Source: an uncultured bacterium | GTDB taxonomy: Bacteria > Lernaellota > Lernaellaia > JACKCT01 | DNA length: 64,000 bases | NCBI GenBank assembly: GCA_964586775.1 | Contig: CAZPJD010000225.1 | Coordinates: forward strand, 464 to 64,463 | Direction of reading: 5' to 3' | Shown here: one piece after another, positions 7,439 through 20,213 of the stretch | Layout of the letters: the number at the start of each line of letters is the position of its first letter | Position numbering within the stretch: position 1 is the first letter of the stretch | Translations under genes and position numbers: made by a program | The notes under the pieces: model-generated | Told to the model about the DNA's origin: nothing | Database searches by the model: none | The model's input: only the letters and a program-made list of their open reading frames with translations

Positions 7439-9781
7439 ATGACGGATCGCGAAGCGCATTCCGATTCCCCGGCCCGTCGCGCCCCGCGCGCGTTCGGGGT
7501 GTGGTGCGTCGCGACGGGCGTCCTCACCGCGGTACAGCTCGCGCTGCCACTCGTCGGCGTGCCCGGTTACGAGGCCGCCCAAATCCAGACGATCTGGTTC
7601 GCCGTCGCCGCGGGTCACATCGCCATCGCGTGGGCAAGGCATCGCTCGAACACGCCCCTGCTCGCGACCGCCGCGACCGCCGCGCTGGCGACCGCGCTCG
7701 TCTGGCTGGCGTGCGTCGCGGCGCTGTTCGGCGCGGGATTCGCGCGCGGCGCATGCGACGCATCGCGCGACGTGTGGTGGTTTCTCATTCTGCCCGGCCC
7801 GGCCATTGCGCTGGGCGCGGCGTGGGGCGCGTTTCTGGCATCGCTCGGGCTTTCCGGTCGCCGAACGCACCTCGCTTATGTCGCCGTCGTCGCCGTCCAT
7901 CTCGCGTGGGAGCTCGCCGGCATCCGCACGCAGCCGATGACCTTTTCCTACAACGCGCTCCTCGGCTACTTCCCGGGACCGGTGTACGACCGCGCGGTGC
8001 GCATCGGCGCGACGCTTGCCGCCTCACGCGCGCTCGGCCTTTCCGAGGCGACGGCGCTCTTCGCACTGGCGGCCCTCGTCGAAGGAAAGCGCGGGCGAAA
8101 AGCCCTCGCCGCCGCGCCGGTTGCGTCGTTCGCGGCAGGTTTCGTCGCGGCGGTCGCGCTCGCGATCGTCGGACCGACCCTCGACGCCTCGACCGATCGC
8201 GCGAAGATCGACGCCACCCTCGGCGCGATTGCCCGCGGGCCGAACGTGACGATGCACTTCCCCGAGGATACGCCGCCGGACGAGGCGCGGCTGTTGCTCA
8301 TCGACCTCGAGCACCGGTTTACGCGCCAGGCGCGGTGGCTCGGCCTCGCCGAGCCCGAGCCCGTCGATGCGTACTACTACCGCTCGGCCCGCGAAAAGAA
8401 GCGGCTGACCGGCGCGGGCGACACGCAGTGGGCGAGTTGCTGGAACCGCGAGATGCACATGACGATCGAGCGGCCGCCGCACTCGGTTCTCAAGCACGAG
8501 GTCGTGCACGTGCTGGCCGAGCCGTGGGGAATTCCGGGGCTGGGGTTCTCGCGCGTGCTCGGCCTCACCGAAGGGCTCGCCGTCGCGTCCGAGGTCTGGC
8601 GCGAGGACTGGACGATCCCGTATTGGGCCGCCGCGATGAAATCCGTCGGCCGTCTGCCCGATCTCGCCGACATCTCGGGGCCCACGGGCTTCTGGCGACT
8701 TTCCGGCACACGCAGCTACCTCGCGTGGGGCGGGTTCCTCACGTGGCTGCGCGAGCGTCATTCGAACGACGCCATTGCGCGCGTGTATCGCACGGGCGAC
8801 TTTCGCGAGGCGTTCGGCAAGAGCCTTCGCGAGCTGGTGGACGAGTGGGAATCGTCGCTCGATGCGATTCGGGTCCCGCCCGATCTCCTCCGCGTCGCGG
8901 CGTATCGATTCTTCCGACCGTCTCTCTTCGAGGGCCGCTGCGCGCGAACCGTCGGCACGCTGGAAGAAGACGGCGCACGGGCGCTCGACGCGGGGCGCGC
9001 GCAAAAGTCGGTGCGTCTTTTCGCCGATGCGCTCGAACTTTCCGGCGGCGATTCGCGCAACCGGCGCGACTTCATGGCGGCCCTCGTGTCGGCGCGGAGA
9101 CTCGACCAGGCCGAGCGCGAGGCCGCAGAAATCTTCGCCGCGGAGGGCGCGGAGTTTTTCGCGACGCCCGAGCCTGGCAAGCCCGTTCACGGCAATCTGC
9201 TCGCGGCGACGCAGGCCCGGCTCACGCAGGCCGCCCTCGCGTGGCGTCGCGGAGATCGCGAATCCGCGCGGCGGTTTTACGAAGACGTGCGCGCATTCGG
9301 TGTGGGCGACGCGAATCGACGCGAGGCAATCGTGGCGCTTGACGCGCTCGGTTCCGCCGCGATCGAGCCGATGATTCGCCGCTATCTGGTGGAGCCCGAT
9401 GCCGAGGGCGCGCGTTGGCACGATCTGCACGCGGCGCTGGATGCCCGGCCCGATGACGCGGTGGCGCGTTACCTGCTCGGGCGCAGGCTCTACGGCGCGC
9501 GACGGTTTGACGACGCGGTGACGCACCTCGATGCCGCGCTCACGCTCGGTTTGCCGGACGACGCGCTGACGCGCGAGGCGTGGCGCACGCTGGGCCGCGC
9601 ACACTACGAGGCCGGGCGATTCGAGGACGCGGCGGTGGTGTTCACCGAGCGCCGACCCGCGAGTCTGTCGGAGGGTGCGCGCAAAGACGCCGACGAGTGG
9701 ATCGACCGCTGCCTGTTCGCCGCGACGTTCCCCGAAACCGTTTCGATCGAAAACGTCGGTGGAATGGGCGACGACGACTGA
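7439..9781 (+). CDS. Membrane-anchored MA-clan (gluzincin-like) metallopeptidase with C-terminal TPR region
   Basis: 780 aa. About 6 N-terminal TM helices. HEVVH (HExxH) followed by TEGLA (candidate third-ligand Glu), as in Peptidase_MA_2-type proteins. The C-terminal ~300 aa are TPR-like helical repeats. Confidence 0.6.
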   Translation: MTDREAHSDSPARRAPRAFGVWCVATGVLTAVQLALPLVGVPGYEAAQIQTIWFAVAAGHIAIAWARHRSNTPLLATAATAALATALVWLACVAALFGAGFARGACDASRDVWWFLILPGPAIALGAAWGAFLASLGLSGRRTHLAYVAVVAVHLAWELAGIRTQPMTFSYNALLGYFPGPVYDRAVRIGATLAASRALGLSEATALFALAALVEGKRGRKALAAAPVASFAAGFVAAVALAIVGPTLDASTDRAKIDATLGAIARGPNVTMHFPEDTPPDEARLLLIDLEHRFTRQARWLGLAEPEPVDAYYYRSAREKKRLTGAGDTQWASCWNREMHMTIERPPHSVLKHEVVHVLAEPWGIPGLGFSRVLGLTEGLAVASEVWREDWTIPYWAAAMKSVGRLPDLADISGPTGFWRLSGTRSYLAWGGFLTWLRERHSNDAIARVYRTGDFREAFGKSLRELVDEWESSLDAIRVPPDLLRVAAYRFFRPSLFEGRCARTVGTLEEDGARALDAGRAQKSVRLFADALELSGGDSRNRRDFMAALVSARRLDQAEREAAEIFAAEGAEFFATPEPGKPVHGNLLAATQARLTQAALAWRRGDRESARRFYEDVRAFGVGDANRREAIVALDALGSAAIEPMIRRYLVEPDAEGARWHDLHAALDARPDDAVARYLLGRRLYGARRFDDAVTHLDAALTLGLPDDALTREAWRTLGRAHYEAGRFEDAAVVFTERRPASLSEGARKDADEWIDRCLFAATFPETVSIENVGGMGDDD

Positions 9782-9830
9782 CGGTTCGCCCCTTGCCGCC
9801 GCGCGGCCCGTTCGATAACGTCCGAGACGC

Positions 9831-11189
9831 ATGACGACCGAACTGTCGATCGCCCGCGCGCGTGCCCGCGCCATCTGGCTCATCGCGGCGAGCCTCGCGT
9901 TCTTCGCTTGGATCTCGCCCGCGTTCGCGTTGCTGTTCGCCTTTACGACGCTCGTCGATCGCGCCCTCGCCCGCGCCGCCGCGCGCGAACATTCGCGGTG
10001 GATCGCCGCGGGCGCGAGCGCCCTCATGAACCTCGGCGCGATCCTCGCCTTGCACAACCTGCACCGATTCGCCGACGCCCTCGCGGCATGGCCCTCGCTG
10101 ATGGGCTCGGCGCTCAATGAGGGCGGCACCATCGCGGTGCTGCCGATCGGCTGGTCGCTGCTCTTCGCGCAAAACCTCGCCCATGTTCTGGATGTGGCGC
10201 GCGGGCGCGGGCAACCGACCGAGTGCATCCTCGAGCACGCGCTCGCCGCCGTGTTCTTCCCGCGCATGTGGGCGGGGCCGATGGTCGAACCCGTCGCGTT
10301 TGCCGCGCGAATTCGTCGGCCCGAGCGCCTCACCGGCGAACGCCTCGGCCGCGCGATCTGGCACGGCGCGCTGGGCGCGATCAAGATCGTCGCCGTCGCC
10401 GACTACCTCGCGCTCAACATGGTGGACAAGGTCTTCGATCTGCCCACGCTTTTCTCCACAACCGAGGTGGTTTTCGCGCTGGTCGCGAACGCGCTCGTCA
10501 TCGCCGCGATGTGGTCGGGCGCGTGCGACATCGCCGTCGCCGCCGGACTCGTGCTCGGCTTCGACCTGCCGCAAAGTTTCGCGTCGCCCGCCACGGCGAC
10601 GGGTCCGCGCGACCACTGGCGTCGGTTCCTCGCGCCGCTCACGGCCGCGCTTCGCGAGCACGTTTTCCGCCCGCTCGCGGGCGGGCCGAATGCTTCGCGC
10701 CTGCGCCGTGCACTCGCCGCGTTTGCGCCGCCGCTGCTGGTCGGCTGCGTCGTGGGGCCGAGCGAAACCACGCTCGCCTTCGGCGCGTTTGTCGGCGCGA
10801 CGCTGTTCGTCGCGACGCTCTTCGGACGCAAGACCTCGAACGACAAGCCGGGCATCGGCGCGCGCGCGTTCGGATGGGTTCTCACTTTCCTCGCCATGAC
10901 GGTCGCGTGGACGCTCTGGCGTGCGCACGACCTGCAAACCGTTTCCGATCTCGCGTCGATCCTGCCGCTCGGCATCTACGAAACGCCGAACCTGACCGCA
11001 ACCGTGATCGGCGTTTTTTTCGCGTCCCAGGTGGTCGCGTTCGTGCCCGCGCCATGGGTCGCGAAAACCCGCGATGCATTCGCACGTGCGCCCTGGCCCG
11101 TACAGGTCGCGGCGGGGCTCGCGGTGGCGTGGGCGCTTTGGCGCGTGAACGCGGTGTCGGAAGTGCCCTTCGTCTACGAGCGGATGTGA
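9831..11189 (+). CDS. MBOAT-family membrane O-acyltransferase homologue (AlgI/DltB-like), divergent
   Basis: 452 aa, polytopic. LPIGWSLLFAQNLAHVLDVARG...FFPRMWAGPMVEP parallels the AlgI consensus LPIGISFYTFQ..SY.IDVYRG...FFPQL.AGPI.R. DHWRRFLAPLTAALREHVFRPLAGG parallels DFWRRWHISLS.WLRDY.YIPLGG. Confidence 0.7.
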   Translation: MTTELSIARARARAIWLIAASLAFFAWISPAFALLFAFTTLVDRALARAAAREHSRWIAAGASALMNLGAILALHNLHRFADALAAWPSLMGSALNEGGTIAVLPIGWSLLFAQNLAHVLDVARGRGQPTECILEHALAAVFFPRMWAGPMVEPVAFAARIRRPERLTGERLGRAIWHGALGAIKIVAVADYLALNMVDKVFDLPTLFSTTEVVFALVANALVIAAMWSGACDIAVAAGLVLGFDLPQSFASPATATGPRDHWRRFLAPLTAALREHVFRPLAGGPNASRLRRALAAFAPPLLVGCVVGPSETTLAFGAFVGATLFVATLFGRKTSNDKPGIGARAFGWVLTFLAMTVAWTLWRAHDLQTVSDLASILPLGIYETPNLTATVIGVFFASQVVAFVPAPWVAKTRDAFARAPWPVQVAAGLAVAWALWRVNAVSEVPFVYERM

Positions 11190-15632: not shown

Positions 15633-15662
15633 GATTCCTGACGGGATCACCTGATTCCTGAC
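15633..15662 (+). promoter_or_regulatory. Direct repeat GATTCCTGAC x2, candidate operator upstream of fadI
   Basis: Identical 10-mers at 15633-15642 and 15653-15662, exactly 20 bp apart, 66 nt upstream of the fadI ATG. Confidence 0.25.
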
Positions 15663-15727
15663 AATGCGTCCGTGGCGTTTGGGGAGCAAGGCCCCCGCGC
15701 GGCGGCATGCGTCGAGGAGGCACCATC

Positions 15728-17032
15728 ATGGCGAAAAAATCCGCTCCCGCGAACGGTCGGCGCGTCGCGGTCATCGACGGCGTACGCACGCCGTTTCTGC
15801 GCGCGGGCACCGAGTTCAACGACCTCATGGCCTACGATCTGGGCCGCTACGCGGTCTCGGGGCTGCTGGGCAAGAGCGGCCTCGACCCGAACACCGTCGA
15901 CATGGTGATGATGGGGTGCGTGATCGCCGATCCCGCGACGTCGAACGTCGCGCGCGAGATCGTGCTCGCCACCGATCTGCCCGACCGCGTGCCGGCGTAC
16001 ACGATCAGCGAGGCGTGCATCTCGGCGAATCAGGCGATCTGCAACGCGGTGGATCAGATCGCGCGCGGCTACGGCGACGTGGCGATCGCGGGCGGCACCG
16101 ACATCACGTCGGACGTGCCGATCCGCTACCAAAAGCGCATGCGCCAAAAATTCCTGCGCACGCAAAAGGCCAAGGGCCTGAAGGACTACTACGAGATCTT
16201 CCACGACGTGAAGCCCGCGGATCTCGTGCCCGACCCTCCGGGCATCGCGGACTTTTTCACGGGGCTGTCGATGGGCGGCGCGTGCGACCGCATCTGCGCG
16301 CGGCTCGGCGTCACCCGCGAGGAGCAGGACCAGTTCGCGGCGCGCTCGCACCAGCTCGCGCATCAGGCGGCGGAGTCGGGCCTCTTCGACGACGAGGTCC
16401 TGACCGTCGCGCCGCCGCCGCATTTCAAGCCGGTGACGCGCGACAACGGCGTGCGCGGCGACACCACCTACGAAAAGATGGCGAAGCTGCGGCCCGCCTT
16501 CGACAAGAACTACGGCACGGTGACCGCGGGCAACGCGTCGTTTCTGACCGACGGCGCGGCGGCGGTGCTGCTGATGAGCGAGGAGAAGGCGAAGGACCTG
16601 GGCTACAGGCCCAAGGCGTACATCATCGGCCACGCGTTTCGCGGCACCGATCCGCTCGAGGAGATGCTGCTCGGCCAGACCTACGCCACGCCCATGGCGC
16701 TCGAGCGCGCGGGGATCTCGTTCGAGGATCTGGGCGTGCTCGAGATCCACGAGGCATTCGCCGGGCAGATGGTGGCGACGGTCAAGCTGCTCGAGTCGAA
16801 AGAATTCGGCGAGAGCCTCGGCATGGGCCGCGCGATCGCGAAGAAGGTGAATCCGGACATCCTCAACATCCACGGCGGATCGCTGTCGATCGGGCATCCC
16901 TTCGGCGCGACGGGCGCGCGGCTGATCCACACGTGCGCGAACCGGCTGCAACGCGAAAACAAACGCTACGGGCTCGTGGCCGCGTGCGCCCTGTCGGGCC
17001 TCGGCAACGCCACCGTGCTCGAACGGGCCTGA
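15728..17032 (+). CDS. fadI: 3-ketoacyl-CoA thiolase, FadI-type
   Basis: Active-site context ISEACISANQAI. C-terminal GGSLSIGHPFGATGARL and ACALSGLGNA. Has the FadI-type insertion (QKRMRQKFLRTQKAKGLKDYY...PPGIADFFTGLSMG). Gene order thiolase then multifunctional enzyme matches fadIJ. ATG at 15728 (track alternative 15707). Confidence 0.85.
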   Translation: MAKKSAPANGRRVAVIDGVRTPFLRAGTEFNDLMAYDLGRYAVSGLLGKSGLDPNTVDMVMMGCVIADPATSNVAREIVLATDLPDRVPAYTISEACISANQAICNAVDQIARGYGDVAIAGGTDITSDVPIRYQKRMRQKFLRTQKAKGLKDYYEIFHDVKPADLVPDPPGIADFFTGLSMGGACDRICARLGVTREEQDQFAARSHQLAHQAAESGLFDDEVLTVAPPPHFKPVTRDNGVRGDTTYEKMAKLRPAFDKNYGTVTAGNASFLTDGAAAVLLMSEEKAKDLGYRPKAYIIGHAFRGTDPLEEMLLGQTYATPMALERAGISFEDLGVLEIHEAFAGQMVATVKLLESKEFGESLGMGRAIAKKVNPDILNIHGGSLSIGHPFGATGARLIHTCANRLQRENKRYGLVAACALSGLGNATVLERA

Positions 17033-17044
17033 GGGGGGACGACC

Positions 17045-19249
17045 ATGGTGTCGAAAAACGCGGTCGCTTCGGCGAAAAACGTGCTGAAGAACGTGCTCAC
17101 GATCGAGCGACGCGACGGCGGCGTCGCCCTCGTCTGGTTCGACGATCCCGACGACGTCGTCAACAAGCTCTCGACCAGGGTGCTTGGTGAGTTCAACGCC
17201 GTGATGGACGAGCTGGAGGCCGACGTGGCCGTCAAGGCCGTGGTGTGGATCTCGCGCAAACCCGACTGCTTCATCGCGGGGGCCGACATCGCGGAGATCC
17301 AGACGTTTTCCACCGCGGCCGACGCCGAGCGCATCAGCCGCACCGGCCATGCTGGTTTTGCGCGTATCGAAAAGAGCAAGAAGATTCACATCGCGTGCGT
17401 GTGCGGCGCGGCGCTGGGCGGCGGCACCGAGTTCGCCCTCGCCTGCCACTACCGCATCGCCGCCGATGCGCCGAAGACGATGTTCGGCCTGCCCGAGGTC
17501 AAGCTCGGTCTGTTGCCCGGCGGCGGCCGCACGCAGCGCCTTCCCCACGTGGTTGGCCTCGAGGCCGCGCTCGACCTGATGCTCACCGGCAAAAACGTCT
17601 TCGCGAAAAAGGCGCTCAAGATGCGCCTGGTGCACGAGGTCGTCTCGCCGTGGGGCCTGCCCGAGACGGCGGTCAAGGCTGCGGCGCGCCTCATCAAGGA
17701 CGGCATCCCGACGGGCAAGACCGACCCCGACTGGAAAGAGAAGATCAAGCAGGACGTCGGCCCCGCGCGCAACCTGATCCTCAAGACCGCGCTCGAAATG
17801 GTCGAACGAAAGACGTACGGCAACTACCCCGCGCCGGGGCACATCATCCGCGCGGTGCGCGCCGGGCTCGAAACGCCGGGCGAAAAGGGCTACGCGGCGG
17901 AGGCGAAGCTCTTTTCCGAGCTCGTCGTCACGCCGCAGTCCCGCCAGCTCGTGAACCTGTTCTTCGCGATGACCTCGAAAAAGAAGAGCGCGCTCGCGGC
18001 CAAGGCCGCGCCGGTGCGTCATCTGGGCGTGCTCGGCGCGGGGCTCATGGGCTCGGGCATCGCGCTCGTGTCGTCGGAGCAGGCCGAGACGCCGGTGTGC
18101 GTGAAGGACATCAGCCCCGACGCGCTCGCGGCAAGCCAGAAGTACGTGTTCCGCGCGATGGACGAAAAATTCCGCAAGCGCGCGATCAACCGCCGCGTGC
18201 GCGACCGGGTGGTCGCGCGGGTACACGGCGTGCTCGATTACGACGCCCTCGGCCGCTGCGATCTCGTCGTCGAAGCCGTCTTCGAGGACATCAAGATCAA
18301 GCACCAGGTGCTGCGCGAGGTCGAGGCCGTCACGCGCCGCGACTGCGTCTTCGCGTCGAACACGTCGGCGCTGCCCATCACGCAGATCGCCGCGGCCTCG
18401 AAGCGGCCCGAAAACGTGCTGGGCATGCACTACTTCTCGCCGGTCGAGAAGATGCCGCTGCTCGAGGTGATCCGCACCGAAAGAACGAGCGAGAGGGCGC
18501 TCGCCACCGCCGTCGCCTTCGGCATGAAACAGGGCAAGACGGTGATCGTCGTTCAGGACGGCCCGGGCTTTTACACCACACGCATCCTCGCGCCTTACAT
18601 GAACGAAACGTGCCTGCTGCTCGCCGAGGGCGCGACGATCCCCGATCTCGACCGCGCCATGCTCGCGTGGGGATTCCCCGTCGGGCCCGCGGCGCTCTTC
18701 GACGAGGTGGGCATCGACGTGGCGGCGCACGTGGCGGGGTTTTTGGGCGAGGCGCTGGCCAAAATCCACGGTCCCACGCCGACCAGCGACGGCATGATCA
18801 AGCTCGCCGCCGCCGGATACAAAGGACGCAAGAACAAGAAGGGCTTCTACCGCTACGACGCCGCGCCCGCGTCGCGCCTGCCGCTGGGGCTGGGCAAAAA
18901 GAAGGGCAAGCTGCCGAACGAGGCCGTGTACGCATTCTTCGGCGATCGGCCGCGCAAGACCGTGAGCGCCGCCGAGATTTCGGACCGGCTCGGCCTGGTG
19001 ATGGTGAACGAGGCGGCGTCGTGCCTGCAGGAAAAGGTGATCGAGACGCCGCAGGACGGCGACCTCGGCGCGATCCTGGGCCTCGGGTTCCCGCCGTTTC
19101 GCGGCGGGCCGTTCCGTTATGTTGACGAGCTCGGCGTGGCGAAGGTGGTGGAAAAACTCGAGCGCCTCGCCGACGCGCACGGTGCGCAGTTCGCGCCCGC
19201 GAAGATTCTGGTCGAATACGCCAAGAAGGGGCGGACGTTTTACAAATAA
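17045..19249 (+). CDS. fadJ: Fatty-acid oxidation complex alpha subunit (enoyl-CoA hydratase / 3-hydroxyacyl-CoA dehydrogenase)
   Basis: 734 aa. N-terminal crotonase fold (FIAGADI, GAALGGGTEFALACH), then the Rossmann motif LGVLGAGLMGSGIA of the 3-hydroxyacyl-CoA dehydrogenase domain. Starts 12 nt after fadI. Confidence 0.85.
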   Translation: MVSKNAVASAKNVLKNVLTIERRDGGVALVWFDDPDDVVNKLSTRVLGEFNAVMDELEADVAVKAVVWISRKPDCFIAGADIAEIQTFSTAADAERISRTGHAGFARIEKSKKIHIACVCGAALGGGTEFALACHYRIAADAPKTMFGLPEVKLGLLPGGGRTQRLPHVVGLEAALDLMLTGKNVFAKKALKMRLVHEVVSPWGLPETAVKAAARLIKDGIPTGKTDPDWKEKIKQDVGPARNLILKTALEMVERKTYGNYPAPGHIIRAVRAGLETPGEKGYAAEAKLFSELVVTPQSRQLVNLFFAMTSKKKSALAAKAAPVRHLGVLGAGLMGSGIALVSSEQAETPVCVKDISPDALAASQKYVFRAMDEKFRKRAINRRVRDRVVARVHGVLDYDALGRCDLVVEAVFEDIKIKHQVLREVEAVTRRDCVFASNTSALPITQIAAASKRPENVLGMHYFSPVEKMPLLEVIRTERTSERALATAVAFGMKQGKTVIVVQDGPGFYTTRILAPYMNETCLLLAEGATIPDLDRAMLAWGFPVGPAALFDEVGIDVAAHVAGFLGEALAKIHGPTPTSDGMIKLAAAGYKGRKNKKGFYRYDAAPASRLPLGLGKKKGKLPNEAVYAFFGDRPRKTVSAAEISDRLGLVMVNEAASCLQEKVIETPQDGDLGAILGLGFPPFRGGPFRYVDELGVAKVVEKLERLADAHGAQFAPAKILVEYAKKGRTFYK

Positions 19250-19400
19250 CGCGAACGCACCAGCAAACGCGCTTGCCAACGCGTCCCCGCGTGCGCACCA
19301 TCGGCCCGACGGGAAGCGGGAGCCGGGACTCCCCGCGGGCTGCAAACTCGCCGGGAACGCCGGGCAGGCGTTCCGTTCGGTTCGACTCCGAATCCCGTCT

Positions 19401-19575
19401 GTGCGGAACCCTCGCAGGTCATGTGGCACAGCCGCCCCCGGCGGTGCGGAACCTTTGCGGGTCATGTGGCACAGCCGCCCCCGCGGTGCGGAACCTTTGC
19501 GGGTCATGTGGCACAGCTGCCCCCCGGCTGTGCGGAACTCTTGCGGGTCATTTGGCACAGCCGCCCCCGGCTGTG
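19401..19575 (+). repeat. Tandem REP array, 4 copies, 42-44 bp period
   Basis: Consensus GTGCGGAACCtTtGCgGGTCATGTGGCACAGCCGCCCCCGGC. Copies start at 19401, 19444, 19486 and 19530. Junctions form a GCACAGC(N8-9)GCTGTGC hairpin. Confidence 0.85.
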
Positions 19576-19588
19576 TAAAACTCCGTTC

Positions 19589-20089
19589 ATGTCGCAACGT
19601 GAACCCAAAGCCCGATACCGGAGAAACCTTCCGCACATACAGGCTGCCGGAAAGACATTCTTCATCACGTTTCGAACGCGCCGGGATGTCGAATTGCCCG
19701 GGGACGCTCGCTCGCTGGTGCTTCAGCATTGTCTGTACGATCACGGGCGGCGCTACGAACTGATCGCCGCCGTGGTGATGCCGGATCACGTGCATCTCCT
19801 GCTCACGCCGAGACTCGAAGACGCGCTCGCCCCGTTCAGACTCGCCGCCCTCATGTCGGGAATCAAAGGATCGTCGGCACATTCCGTGAACAAAGCCATG
19901 GGACGACGCGGCCCATTGTGGCAGGACGAATCATTCGACCATGTCCTGCGTTCTGACGAAGATGCGCGTCAGGTCGGGGAATACATTTCGCTCAACCCGG
20001 TGCGCAAGGGGCTCGCCGAAACGCCCGAAGGGTATCCATGGCTTTGGCGGCGGTGGGTGGAGGGAGAAAGAGTCCAGCAGGGGCCATGA
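19589..20089 (+). CDS. REP-associated tyrosine transposase (RAYT; IS200/IS605-like Y1 HUH family)
   Basis: 166 aa. YRRNLPH near the N-terminus, HUH motif MPDHVHLLL, WQDESFDH, and a Tyr helix in GEYISLNPVRKGL. Internal ATG at 19589 of track ORF 19421-20089. Confidence 0.85.
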   Translation: MSQREPKARYRRNLPHIQAAGKTFFITFRTRRDVELPGDARSLVLQHCLYDHGRRYELIAAVVMPDHVHLLLTPRLEDALAPFRLAALMSGIKGSSAHSVNKAMGRRGPLWQDESFDHVLRSDEDARQVGEYISLNPVRKGLAETPEGYPWLWRRWVEGERVQQGP

Positions 20090-20096
20090 GGCAAGA

Positions 20097-20213
20097 GCAC
20101 AGCCGGGGGCGGCTGTGCCACATGTCCCGCTAGGGTCCTTGCCTTTGAATGTGGAACAGGCGCCCTCGCCTGTTCGGCACTCGCACAGCCGGGGGCGACT
20201 GTGCCACATGATC
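20097..20213 (-). repeat. Two inverted REP copies plus an intervening perfect hairpin
   Basis: GCACAGCCGGGGGCGGCTGTGCCACATG (20097-) and GCACAGCCGGGGGCGACTGTGCCACATG (20183-) are reverse complements of the upstream REP core. Hairpin GAACAGGCG-ccct-CGCCTGTTC at 20154-20175. Confidence 0.75.

Follow-up and report, generated by a model that had tools for sequence, protein, structure and literature searches.

We find that the window, by which we mean the whole 64-kb stretch of DNA analyzed here, contains an intact, ordinary REP-associated tyrosine transposase (RAYT) gene with copies of its own hairpin repeat on both sides. The locus is very probably a REPtron, in which a RAYT (TnpA-REP) that is single-copy and vertically inherited is enclosed by its cognate REPs. 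The original prediction had described a complete REP-RAYT unit, with cognate REPs in opposite orientations on the two sides of the gene, and the protein profile, the catalytic motifs and the repeats all agreed with it.

The RAYT protein, of which the window encodes one copy, matched the NCBIfam model for REP-associated tyrosine transposases (NF047646, REP_Tyr_transpos) with 95.4 bits against a cutoff of 80, over positions 4-145 of the 146-position profile, and it also matched Pfam Y1_Tnp. The HUH motif and the C-terminal tyrosine helix noted originally were both present: the HUH motif is H67-V68-H69 (within DHVH), and the catalytic tyrosine, Y132, lies in the motif YISLNP (Y132-I-S-L-N136-P137) on a helix predicted by the AF2 model at residues 126-134. 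The W motif is W111-Q112. The HUH and Y---NP motifs were invariant across the 30 family members compared, and the window RAYT retains 31 of 31 family-invariant residues. The AF2 model (pLDDT 84, pTM 0.81) gave 4ER8 as its top fold match in the PDB (E = 6e-8, TM 0.61, 165 columns, full length), and this TnpA-REP entry was also the best PDB match by sequence (~24% identity). Neither a Pfam search nor the AF2 model revealed an extra domain in the 166 residues. The Y---NP motif is the signature of class 2 TnpA-Y1 (Quentin et al. 2018, PMC6006769); in a comparison with Table 1 of that paper, the combination DHVH/WQ/YISLNP was nearest to subclass 2.7 ([ND]HVH / WQ / YI[LR][NQ]NP) and matched none of the rows 2.1-2.8 exactly.

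The REP is a sharply bounded element of 25-26 nt, composed of a (T)GTGG foot, a 9-bp GC-rich stem and a 4-nt loop. Upstream of the gene, Tandem Repeats Finder recovered the four tandem ~43-bp repeats that had been reported (period 43, 4.2 copies, 89% matches, score 278), each unit consisting of a 17-nt leader, GGAACCYTTGCGGGTCA, followed by a REP (Table 1). The array does end just before the RAYT gene, with a spacing of 12-13 nt between the last hairpin (19575/6) and the ATG in place of the 14 nt given; the start codon lies near the predicted 19590, its exact position being 19589. As the linker is repeated along with the rest of the 43-bp unit and there are no unique spacers, a CRISPR array was rejected.

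Table 1. Positions of the RAYT gene, the REP copies and the associated repeats in the window.
Feature	Position	Strand	Evidence
Tandem head-to-tail array, four 42-44-bp units	19394..19576	+	Tandem Repeats Finder, unit alignment
REP copy 1, TGTGGCACAGCCGCCCCCGGCGGTGC, single stem mismatch	19422..19447	+	Repeat search, folding
REP copy 2, 1-nt deletion in 3' arm, without canonical hairpin	19465..19489	+	Folding, z = +0.2
REP copy 3, 5'-arm C-to-T (T/G mismatch), extra loop C	19507..19533	+	Folding, unit alignment
Bracketing inverted repeat (leader plus REP), left arm	19537..19575	+	Repeat search, 90% complementary
REP copy 4, gene-proximal, foot GTGG changed to TTGG, 8 stem pairs left	19551..19576	+	Folding, z = -2.8
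RAYT / TnpA-REP gene, 166 aa	19589..20089	+	ORF plus profile, motif and fold evidence
REP copy 5, inverted relative to upstream array, GTGG foot, perfect 9-bp stem, CCCC loop	20097..20122	-	0 mismatches
Bracketing inverted repeat, right arm	20098..20136	-	Repeat search
Variant REP, TGTGGAACAGGCGCCCTCGCCTGTTC, canonical foot, stem length and loop length	20150..20175	+	Folding, alignment
REP copy 6, inverted, one stem mismatch	20183..20208	-	Repeat search, folding

Downstream of the stop codon, the two reverse-complement copies that had been described (copies 5 and 6) were recovered within 121 nt. A perfect 9-bp hairpin was said to separate them; this hairpin is real, but it is not a mere separator. 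Positions 20154-20162 pair with 20167-20175 (-12 kcal/mol, z = -3.65; foot region ATGTGG), and two stem positions are altered on both arms in a compensatory manner. This co-variation, together with the REP layout, identifies the element as a seventh, variant REP on the plus strand, and a similar CAGGCG/CGCCTG variant occurs downstream of the RAYT in another genome (locus L108). The variant and copy 6 form an inverted, REPIN-like pair in which the feet lie on the outside and 7 nt separate the two elements, a geometry that matches the dispersed pairs found in other genomes. The claim that every REP core can fold as a hairpin held without flaw only for copy 5 (-14 kcal/mol, z = -3.3). The other five of the six canonical-type copies are defective, with copy 2 failing to fold and the remaining four carrying flaws, such as the loss of the ninth base pair in copy 4.

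Part of the array and of the downstream cluster together make up an inverted repeat of 39-40 nt that brackets the gene and reaches 14-17 nt past the REP. This extension faintly recalls terminal inverted repeats and is a point against the REPtron reading. Assignment as a TIRYT (subclass 2.1) was rejected, given the length of 166 aa, the lack of a C-terminal HTH and a bracketing repeat that amounts to the REP plus its 14-17-nt leader.

As described originally, the unit lies between a fadJ gene and a lipoprotein gene. The gene upstream carries ECH_1, 3HCDH_N and 3HCDH domains (Pfam) and is thus FadJ/FadB-like; the downstream neighbor encodes an 801-aa protein on the minus strand, which had no match in Pfam and has a lipobox-like signal (..FVAGC) read from its translation. 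We also noted a minus-strand ORF at 15647-19882 (1,411 aa) that overlaps both fadJ and the RAYT gene and treated it as a high-GC artifact.

A syntenic orthologue is present in GCA_020845895.1 (locus L120), where the gene order is the same, which fits vertical inheritance of the RAYT as judged from the two sequences. The L120 and window RAYTs are 81% identical in amino acid sequence and the neighboring genes 89-95% identical. With a dN/dS of 0.15 for this pair, the RAYT shows purifying selection by this measure. The L120 gene is bracketed by a similar inverted repeat (87% complementary), and the arrangement of REPs in the same orientation upstream and inverted downstream of the RAYT is shared by the window, L120, L108 and a further locus, L067; REPs also lie on both sides of a partial RAYT match at locus L098. 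A plasmid search returned no close RAYT relatives, the best matches being 26-43% identical, and thus gave no indication of a plasmid-borne origin. Since the array units are more alike within one genome than between the window genome and its relative, the upstream arrays in both would be best explained by local tandem duplication of the REP plus its leader.

The original prediction allowed that the repeat might be unique to this locus, a local duplication and not a REP family. It is not. We found the exact 24-mer at 119 or more loci, spread over about 50 assemblies with seven phylum labels, and in several genomes it is present at 5-12 or more separate loci, indicating a dispersed family. In many genomes the REP is dispersed alone, without any gene; most often, two copies make up an inverted pair whose feet lie outside and whose spacer is 10-17 nt long. 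Among 126 copies, the TG directly before the 24-mer was conserved (87% and 98%) and the flanks beyond it were not, as would be the case for a discrete element. The REP, GTGGCACAGCCGCCCCCGGCTGTGC, was identical to the base in genomes labeled Planctomycetota, Acidobacteriota, Chloroflexota and Verrucomicrobiota, and was likewise unchanged in genomes labeled Sumerlaeota, Actinomycetota and 'Deltaproteobacteria'. Viral contigs contained one match, to an inverted REP pair of the ordinary kind that has no RAYT in its vicinity. A repeat of 25 bases that stays unchanged across seven phylum labels is the sole unusual point of the locus.

The dispersed REP occurs in many genomes that encode RAYTs of the same clade as the window RAYT. 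We found 2,712 RAYT homologues at E <= 1e-5, mostly metagenomic, and most of those listed at the top are 50-60% identical to the window protein. Many of 120 homologues carried REP-derived peptides at their called N- and C-termini, in keeping with REPs on both sides of the gene, and in many members of the clade the proximal REP shares its reading frame with the RAYT ORF (VAQPPxAV). This is a hint that translation may start at or before the REP foot, in which case RAYT expression could be gated by the hairpin. The 25-mer REP had no match in the text of papers that can be searched, apart from unrelated primer or human sequences, and we found no description of this RAYT clade in searchable papers. 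Taken jointly, these observations raise the possibility, which we put forward only tentatively, of a large RAYT clade with a REP that is base-invariant across phyla and a hairpin that perhaps gates expression. If true, an invariant REP would imply either repeated transfer of REP-RAYT between phyla or an unusually rigid protein-DNA recognition code.

One result runs against the REPtron reading within the lineage of the window itself: no REP copies were found outside the locus, either in the 64-kb window or in the 20.5-kb L120 locus of the relative. A search of the 64 kb with a 23-mer core (up to 3 mismatches) gave 4 matches versus 0.00 expected, and a 14-mer core (up to 2 mismatches) gave 6 versus 0.36 expected, all of them at this locus. 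The original prediction had thus been right that there are no further copies in the window, but had called their absence unusual. Genomes that carry this REP have about one independent site per 51 kb, and at this density the probability of finding no extra site in 63 kb is about 0.29. Thus, the absence of further REPs in 64 kb is uninformative.

Such an absence would also be seen if the RAYT were an orphan, or a relic, kept in a genome without a dispersed REP/REPIN population. The seven local copies would then be leftovers together with products of tandem duplication at the site, leaving the enzyme almost or entirely without substrate, or with a different role. We regard this as unlikely, although several observations agree with it: most of the local REP copies are defective, the units are homogenized within each genome in a way that fits local duplication, and a lineage-specific extended unit, GCGGGWCATGTGGCACAGCC, was absent from JGI metagenome contigs. 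All six of its matches there were in-frame coding coincidences (..PRVMWHSR..) with neither a RAYT nor a hairpin, and were rejected as REPs for these reasons. However, the JGI metagenome collection may lack the lineage, and, in addition to the probability given above, both the selection on the gene and the persistence of one flawless REP and one compensated variant speak against the orphan or relic reading.

A second alternative is that the repeat cluster acts mainly at the level of RNA, stabilizing or terminating the convergent RAYT and lipoprotein transcripts at their 3' ends and controlling RAYT translation through a hairpin in the 5' UTR, with no current role in mobilization. Stable hairpins do lie between convergent genes here, with copy 6 ending 12 nt from the stop codon of the lipoprotein gene, and the proximal hairpin closely precedes an ATG that has no evident Shine-Dalgarno sequence upstream. 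The available text of Di Nocera et al. 2013 (PMC3733652) reports REPs mostly 3' of coding regions. Nevertheless, a consensus scan detected no terminator-like site at the REPs; its one plus-strand match (19714-19727) falls within the coding part of the RAYT gene. None of the REPs of the locus is followed by a T-run. Thus, the originally proposed second function of the unit, as terminator region of the two flanking genes, is not supported. The end of the fadJ-like gene lies 145 nt ahead of the array, and this gene has an imperfect palindrome of its own at 19253-19286. A scan for sigma-70 promoters found none. The entire window had no match to an Rfam family, and an RNA-level function would not account for the exact agreement between the repeats and the cognate REP of the enzyme encoded among them. 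As the main explanation we consider it improbable, but a role of this kind is compatible with the REPtron rather than exclusive of it, and it is possible that the REPs serve as a 3'-end hairpin for the lipoprotein and RAYT mRNAs.

An autonomous IS200/IS605-type insertion sequence with the flanking hairpins as its left and right ends is highly improbable and largely refuted: the HUH/Y1 fold with its Y1_Tnp match, the hairpins on both sides and the 39-40-nt bracketing repeat are what such an element might show, but the IS200 equivalog model NF033573 gave 19.4 bits where its cutoff is 55, the protein has Y---NP and not Y---Q as its Y motif, there is no tnpB neighbor, the gene is single-copy in the window, and the flanking hairpin is a sequence that is dispersed alone, gene-free, in many genomes. 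Moreover, the RAYT occupies the same chromosomal position in the relative and has diverged there by 19% in amino acid sequence alongside its neighbors, which argues against recent transposition. What the window RAYT shares with IS200/IS605 TnpA (Quentin subclass 1.1) is the HUH/Y1 fold and, by analogy, probably the recognition of single-stranded hairpins; the two differ in Y motif, copy number, tnpB association and end structure. The grouping with IS200/IS605 TnpA that the original prediction had held open was therefore not found.

Under the REPtron explanation, a mechanism can be proposed by analogy with E. coli TnpA-REP. The HUH/Y1 enzyme would recognize the folded REP hairpin together with its 5' GT[AG]G foot in DNA that is single-stranded, such as that at a replication fork. 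H67 and H69 would bind the metal, and the enzyme would cut and rejoin DNA via a 5'-phosphotyrosine link to Y132. Such activity may maintain or spread REPs and inverted REP pairs (REPINs) throughout the genome.

The E. coli system itself (RAYT, yafM; 4ER8; Quentin subclass 2.2 / Bertels Group 2) resembles the window locus in the length of the protein (~165 aa), its HUH/Y1 core, the flanking of the gene by inverted cognate REPs and the 5' GT[AG]G foot at the base of the hairpin. As in E. coli BIMEs, which contain Y and Z REPs, two REP subtypes alternate in orientation. In contrast, the proteins are only about 24% identical and their motifs differ (DHVH/WQ/YISLNP in the window versus DHLH/WE/YIHYNP in subclass 2.2), the foot is GTGG where E. 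coli has GTAG, the stem is short and perfect (9 bp) where that of E. coli is long and bulged, and the head-to-tail tandem array upstream of the gene sets the window apart. The RAYT-REPIN system of Pseudomonas fluorescens (Bertels & Rainey 2011; Group 3 / subclass 2.5) is likewise single-copy, vertically inherited and under purifying selection (PMC5581495), and its short REPs are dispersed as inverted pairs (REPINs). Its group has the Y motif YI[VI]ANP compared to YISLNP in the window; whereas the REPs of Pseudomonas are specific to a species or a RAYT and reach very high numbers, the 25-mer of the window spans phylum labels at a modest density, about one site per 51 kb in the genomes that carry it.

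The GTAG-tagged families, compared by their description in the available text of Di Nocera et al. 2013 (PMC3733652), also have a GT[AG]G/GTGG foot and a 6-9-bp stem, form dimers with mostly outside feet, and reiterate the REP plus its flank in tandem within clusters. One of these families, GTAG-20 of Opitutus terrae, has a GTGG foot, and others come from Planctomycetes and Chloroflexi; that text already notes families common to distant organisms.

The secure outcome is one of annotation: the gene is a REP-associated tyrosine transposase and not an IS200 'transposase', and the repeats that surround it are its REPs. The locus adds to a known kind of RAYT/REP system, its unusual part being the constancy of the REP across phylum labels; this wider, cross-phylum point rests on the other genomes and not on the window, which offers a small way into a RAYT clade with a REP that stays the same from phylum to phylum. 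The well-studied REP-RAYT systems of Pseudomonas and enterobacteria have lineage-specific REPs that are thought to co-evolve with the RAYT. For this reason, an invariant 25-nt REP found alongside RAYTs that are only 50-60% identical to the window protein would be a useful natural experiment, both on recognition specificity and on the horizontal versus vertical spread of REP-RAYT.

The locus is a REPtron of known kind, that is, a gene for a REP-associated tyrosine transposase (RAYT, or TnpA-REP) together with its cognate REPs, short hairpin repeats with a GTGG foot. The proposed HUH/Y1 RAYT identity of the gene was borne out. Its protein scored 95.4 bits (cutoff 80) over nearly the full profile of NF047646, the NCBIfam equivalog for REP-associated tyrosine transposases, and in Pfam it matched only Y1_Tnp, at the superfamily level. 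Among solved structures, 4ER8 (E. coli TnpA-REP in complex with a REP hairpin) matched best by sequence and was also the best fold match to an AlphaFold model from a 30-sequence alignment (pLDDT 84, pTM 0.81; TM 0.61 over all 165 columns), with the IS200, ISDra2 and IS608 transposases ranking behind. Furthermore, the protein keeps 31/31 of the invariant positions in that alignment, including H67-V68-H69 (HUH), W111-Q112 and Y132/N136/P137. Y---NP is the class 2 (TnpA-REP) signature, whereas IS200 transposases have Y---Q (Quentin et al. 2018). The motif triplet DHVH/WQ/YISLNP is nearest to subclass 2.7 and matches no published subclass exactly. Identity as an IS200/IS605 TnpA was rejected, given Y---NP rather than Y---Q and a score of 19.4 bits against that model's cutoff of 55.

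An ORF is present as predicted, but its ATG lies one base before the position originally implied. The frame is open through the whole array to an ATG in REP copy 1 (19421-20089, +; 222 aa), and a 99% identical database homologue, P0002, is the window gene itself called from an internal TTG (131 aa). Alignment of the homologues favours the 166-aa start at 19589 over either of these calls.

Features of the RAYT locus in the window
Feature	Position	Strand	Details
Tandem array, four 42-44-bp units	19394-19576		family D1; Tandem Repeats Finder
RAYT ORF	19589-20089	+	166 aa
Reverse-complement REP copy, flawless	20097-20122	-	perfect 9-bp stem, -14 kcal/mol, z = -3.3
Variant REP, seventh copy	20150-20175	+	ATGTGG-AACAGGCG-CCCT-CGCCTGTT-C
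Reverse-complement REP copy	20183-20208	-	one stem mismatch
Predicted lipoprotein, 801 aa	20221-22626	-	lipobox FVAGC

As anticipated, four tandem repeats of about 43 bp precede the gene (period 43, 4.2 copies, 89% matches, score 278) and two reverse-complement copies follow it. Each array unit consists of a 17-nt leader and a 25-26-nt element, TGTGGCACAGCCGCCCCCGGCTGTGC. The repeats are present as REPs but are unequal, since only the first downstream copy is flawless among the six of canonical type: a stem mismatch occurs in unit 1, unit 2 carries a deletion and lacks the REP fold (z = +0.2), unit 3 combines a T/G mismatch with one additional base in the loop, and unit 4, adjoining the RAYT gene, has the foot TTGG instead of GTGG. 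The REPs at the locus are far above chance. Within the 64-kb window, a 23-mer with up to 3 mismatches gave 4 matches versus 0.00 expected, and a 14-mer with up to 2 mismatches gave 6 versus 0.36 expected; neither search found the core in the rest of the 64 kb.

The perfect 9-bp hairpin noticed between the downstream copies is real (z = -3.65). It has the foot, 9-bp stem and 4-nt loop of the REP layout and is therefore a seventh, variant REP, in which two stem positions are altered on both sides in a compensatory manner (CACAGCCG to AACAGGCG). With the second reverse-complement copy it forms an inverted pair, feet outside, with a 7-nt spacer; this is the commonest geometry of dispersed copies elsewhere, where the spacer is 10-17 nt. 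A similar CAGGCG/CGCCTG variant occupies the same relative position downstream of the RAYT at another carrier locus, L108. Downstream of the gene, two REP subtypes thus alternate in orientation in a small BIME-like cluster, much as the Y and Z REPs do in the E. coli REPtron (PMC6006769).

The closest full-length homologue among the matches listed (P0001, 81% identity) lies in the syntenic locus L120 of a relative, GCA_020845895.1. The order there is as in the window: thiolase, fadJ-like gene, REP array, RAYT, two inverted REPs, a 781-aa lipoprotein, nrfH and nrfA. Nucleotide identity is 86% on both sides of the array, and the RAYT has a dN/dS of 0.15, compared with 0.07-0.15 for neighbour genes of 89-95% amino-acid identity. 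It follows that the two RAYTs are orthologues, subject to purifying selection and fixed in chromosomal position. Domesticated RAYTs behave likewise (Bertels et al. 2017, PMC5581495); an IS would be expected to do the opposite. The gene is single-copy in the window, and a plasmid search found no close relative. The adjacent predicted lipoprotein of 801 aa, 92% identical in L120 and adjoining nrfH and nrfA, has no Pfam match; its sequence includes a long low-complexity linker rich in Asp and Thr and, at the C-terminus, an Asp-rich segment with Cys.

There are four array units in the window versus three in L120, and two of the L120 units share a replaced 3' arm. Units are more alike within a genome than between the two, which indicates that the arrays probably underwent independent tandem duplication or homogenisation. 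Exactly at the array's distal edge (window 19401/19449), L120 carries a 1.7-kb insertion (8160-9862) with a GH79-family (Glyco_hydro_79n) gene, and just upstream of the array is a residual copy of the C-terminal end of the lipoprotein (AADGCWYEV*; 9829-9870, -). Together these suggest a rearrangement at the REP cluster in L120.

The alternative of a repeat confined to this locus does not hold at the level of the family. In a scan of one genome per species, the exact 24-nt core was found at at least 119 loci and, among the matches listed, in about 50 assemblies by record titles, labelled Planctomycetota, Acidobacteriota, Chloroflexota, Verrucomicrobiota, Sumerlaeota, Actinomycetota and 'Deltaproteobacteria'. 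Several single genomes have at least 5-12 separate loci each. Because the carriers include megabase-scale contigs and a complete genome, CP050848.1, with at least nine loci (L012, L027, L028, L056, L067, L076, L079, L109 and L112), these labels are unlikely to be binning artefacts. REPs are usually lineage-specific, so an exact core across seven phylum labels is unusual; the RAYTs adjoining it share only 51-58% identity with the window protein. When metagenomes were scanned for the extended unit specific to the window's lineage, all matches were coincidences within coding sequence.

A RAYT homologue is encoded at 8 of the 119 loci among the matches listed, the others being stand-alone repeats. 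Across 126 copies, conservation takes in the two bases 5' of the 24-mer (T 87%, G 98%) and stops at the edges of the element on both sides, which marks it as a discrete inserted element. Carrier genomes have one independent additional site per roughly 51 kb, giving a probability of about 0.29 of none in 63 kb. Thus, the lack of further copies in 64 kb, originally thought unusual, carries little weight. Tandem upstream arrays like the window's recur in the clade: a Planctomycetaceae MAG (WYBU01000068.1; L023, 4708-5170) has a head-to-tail array of at least 15 REPs with a 29-bp period, almost pure REP, and homologue P0065 has four in-frame tandem REPs with a 30-nt period directly upstream of its RAYT. 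A predicted viral contig (IMGVR_UViG_3300013138_001791; L127, 11057-11120) carries a typical inverted REP pair of this family with an 11-nt spacer and no RAYT; the region may derive from the host, or the contig could be a vehicle for transfer.

Among the 120 homologues listed (P0001-P0120), REP-derived peptides stand at the called termini of many, a further trace of the inverted REP arrangement around the gene. The proximal upstream REP is read in the VAQPPxAV frame in 29 of the 65 whose N-termini are extended by 20 aa or more, and in the other two open frames in 0/65. Some of the called starts coincide with the GTG or ATG in the REP foot. The in-frame observation also takes in carrier loci L108, L067 and L058. 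In the window and L120, 73 nt separate the REP from the NLPH codon, the REP is out of frame, and a stop comes after it; carrier loci L096 and L098 also depart from the in-frame pattern.

The window combines a RAYT family member with intact catalytic residues, purifying selection on its gene and repeats of REP structure, and the inverted REP arrangement is conserved around RAYTs from other phyla. By analogy with the E. coli work of Ton-Hoang 2012, Messing 2012 and Corneloup 2021 (summarised in PMC6006769 and PMC8266576), the enzyme would act on single-stranded DNA, where it would bind the REP in its folded form together with the GT[AG]G foot and would cleave and rejoin nearby via a phosphotyrosine intermediate, which would account for the spread of REPs and REPINs (REP inverted pairs). 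The suggestion that the unit terminates both flanking genes is unsupported. No REP is followed by a T-run, and a consensus scan found no terminator-like site at the REPs, its sole + match (19714-19727) falling within the coding region of the RAYT. Between the end of the fadJ-like gene and the array there are 145 nt, and that gene has a palindrome of its own. The REPs could act as 3' hairpins for the convergent transcripts of the RAYT and lipoprotein genes.

Overall, the REP-RAYT unit of the original prediction is confirmed as an observation and supported in its interpretation, with corrections for the variant REP, the terminator and the uninformative absence. GT[AG]G-footed REPs, including GTGG-footed ones, have already been described, with families known from Planctomycetes, Verrucomicrobia and Chloroflexi; their preferred form is the feet-outside dimer, and clusters with tandem reiteration are also described (PMC3733652). 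In the literature searched (full text without figures), we found no description of this particular 25-mer REP or of base-for-base REP conservation over seven phylum labels. The possible novelty, an invariant REP alongside RAYTs of only 50-60% identity to the window protein and a proximal REP read in frame in many homologues, concerns the clade rather than the window.
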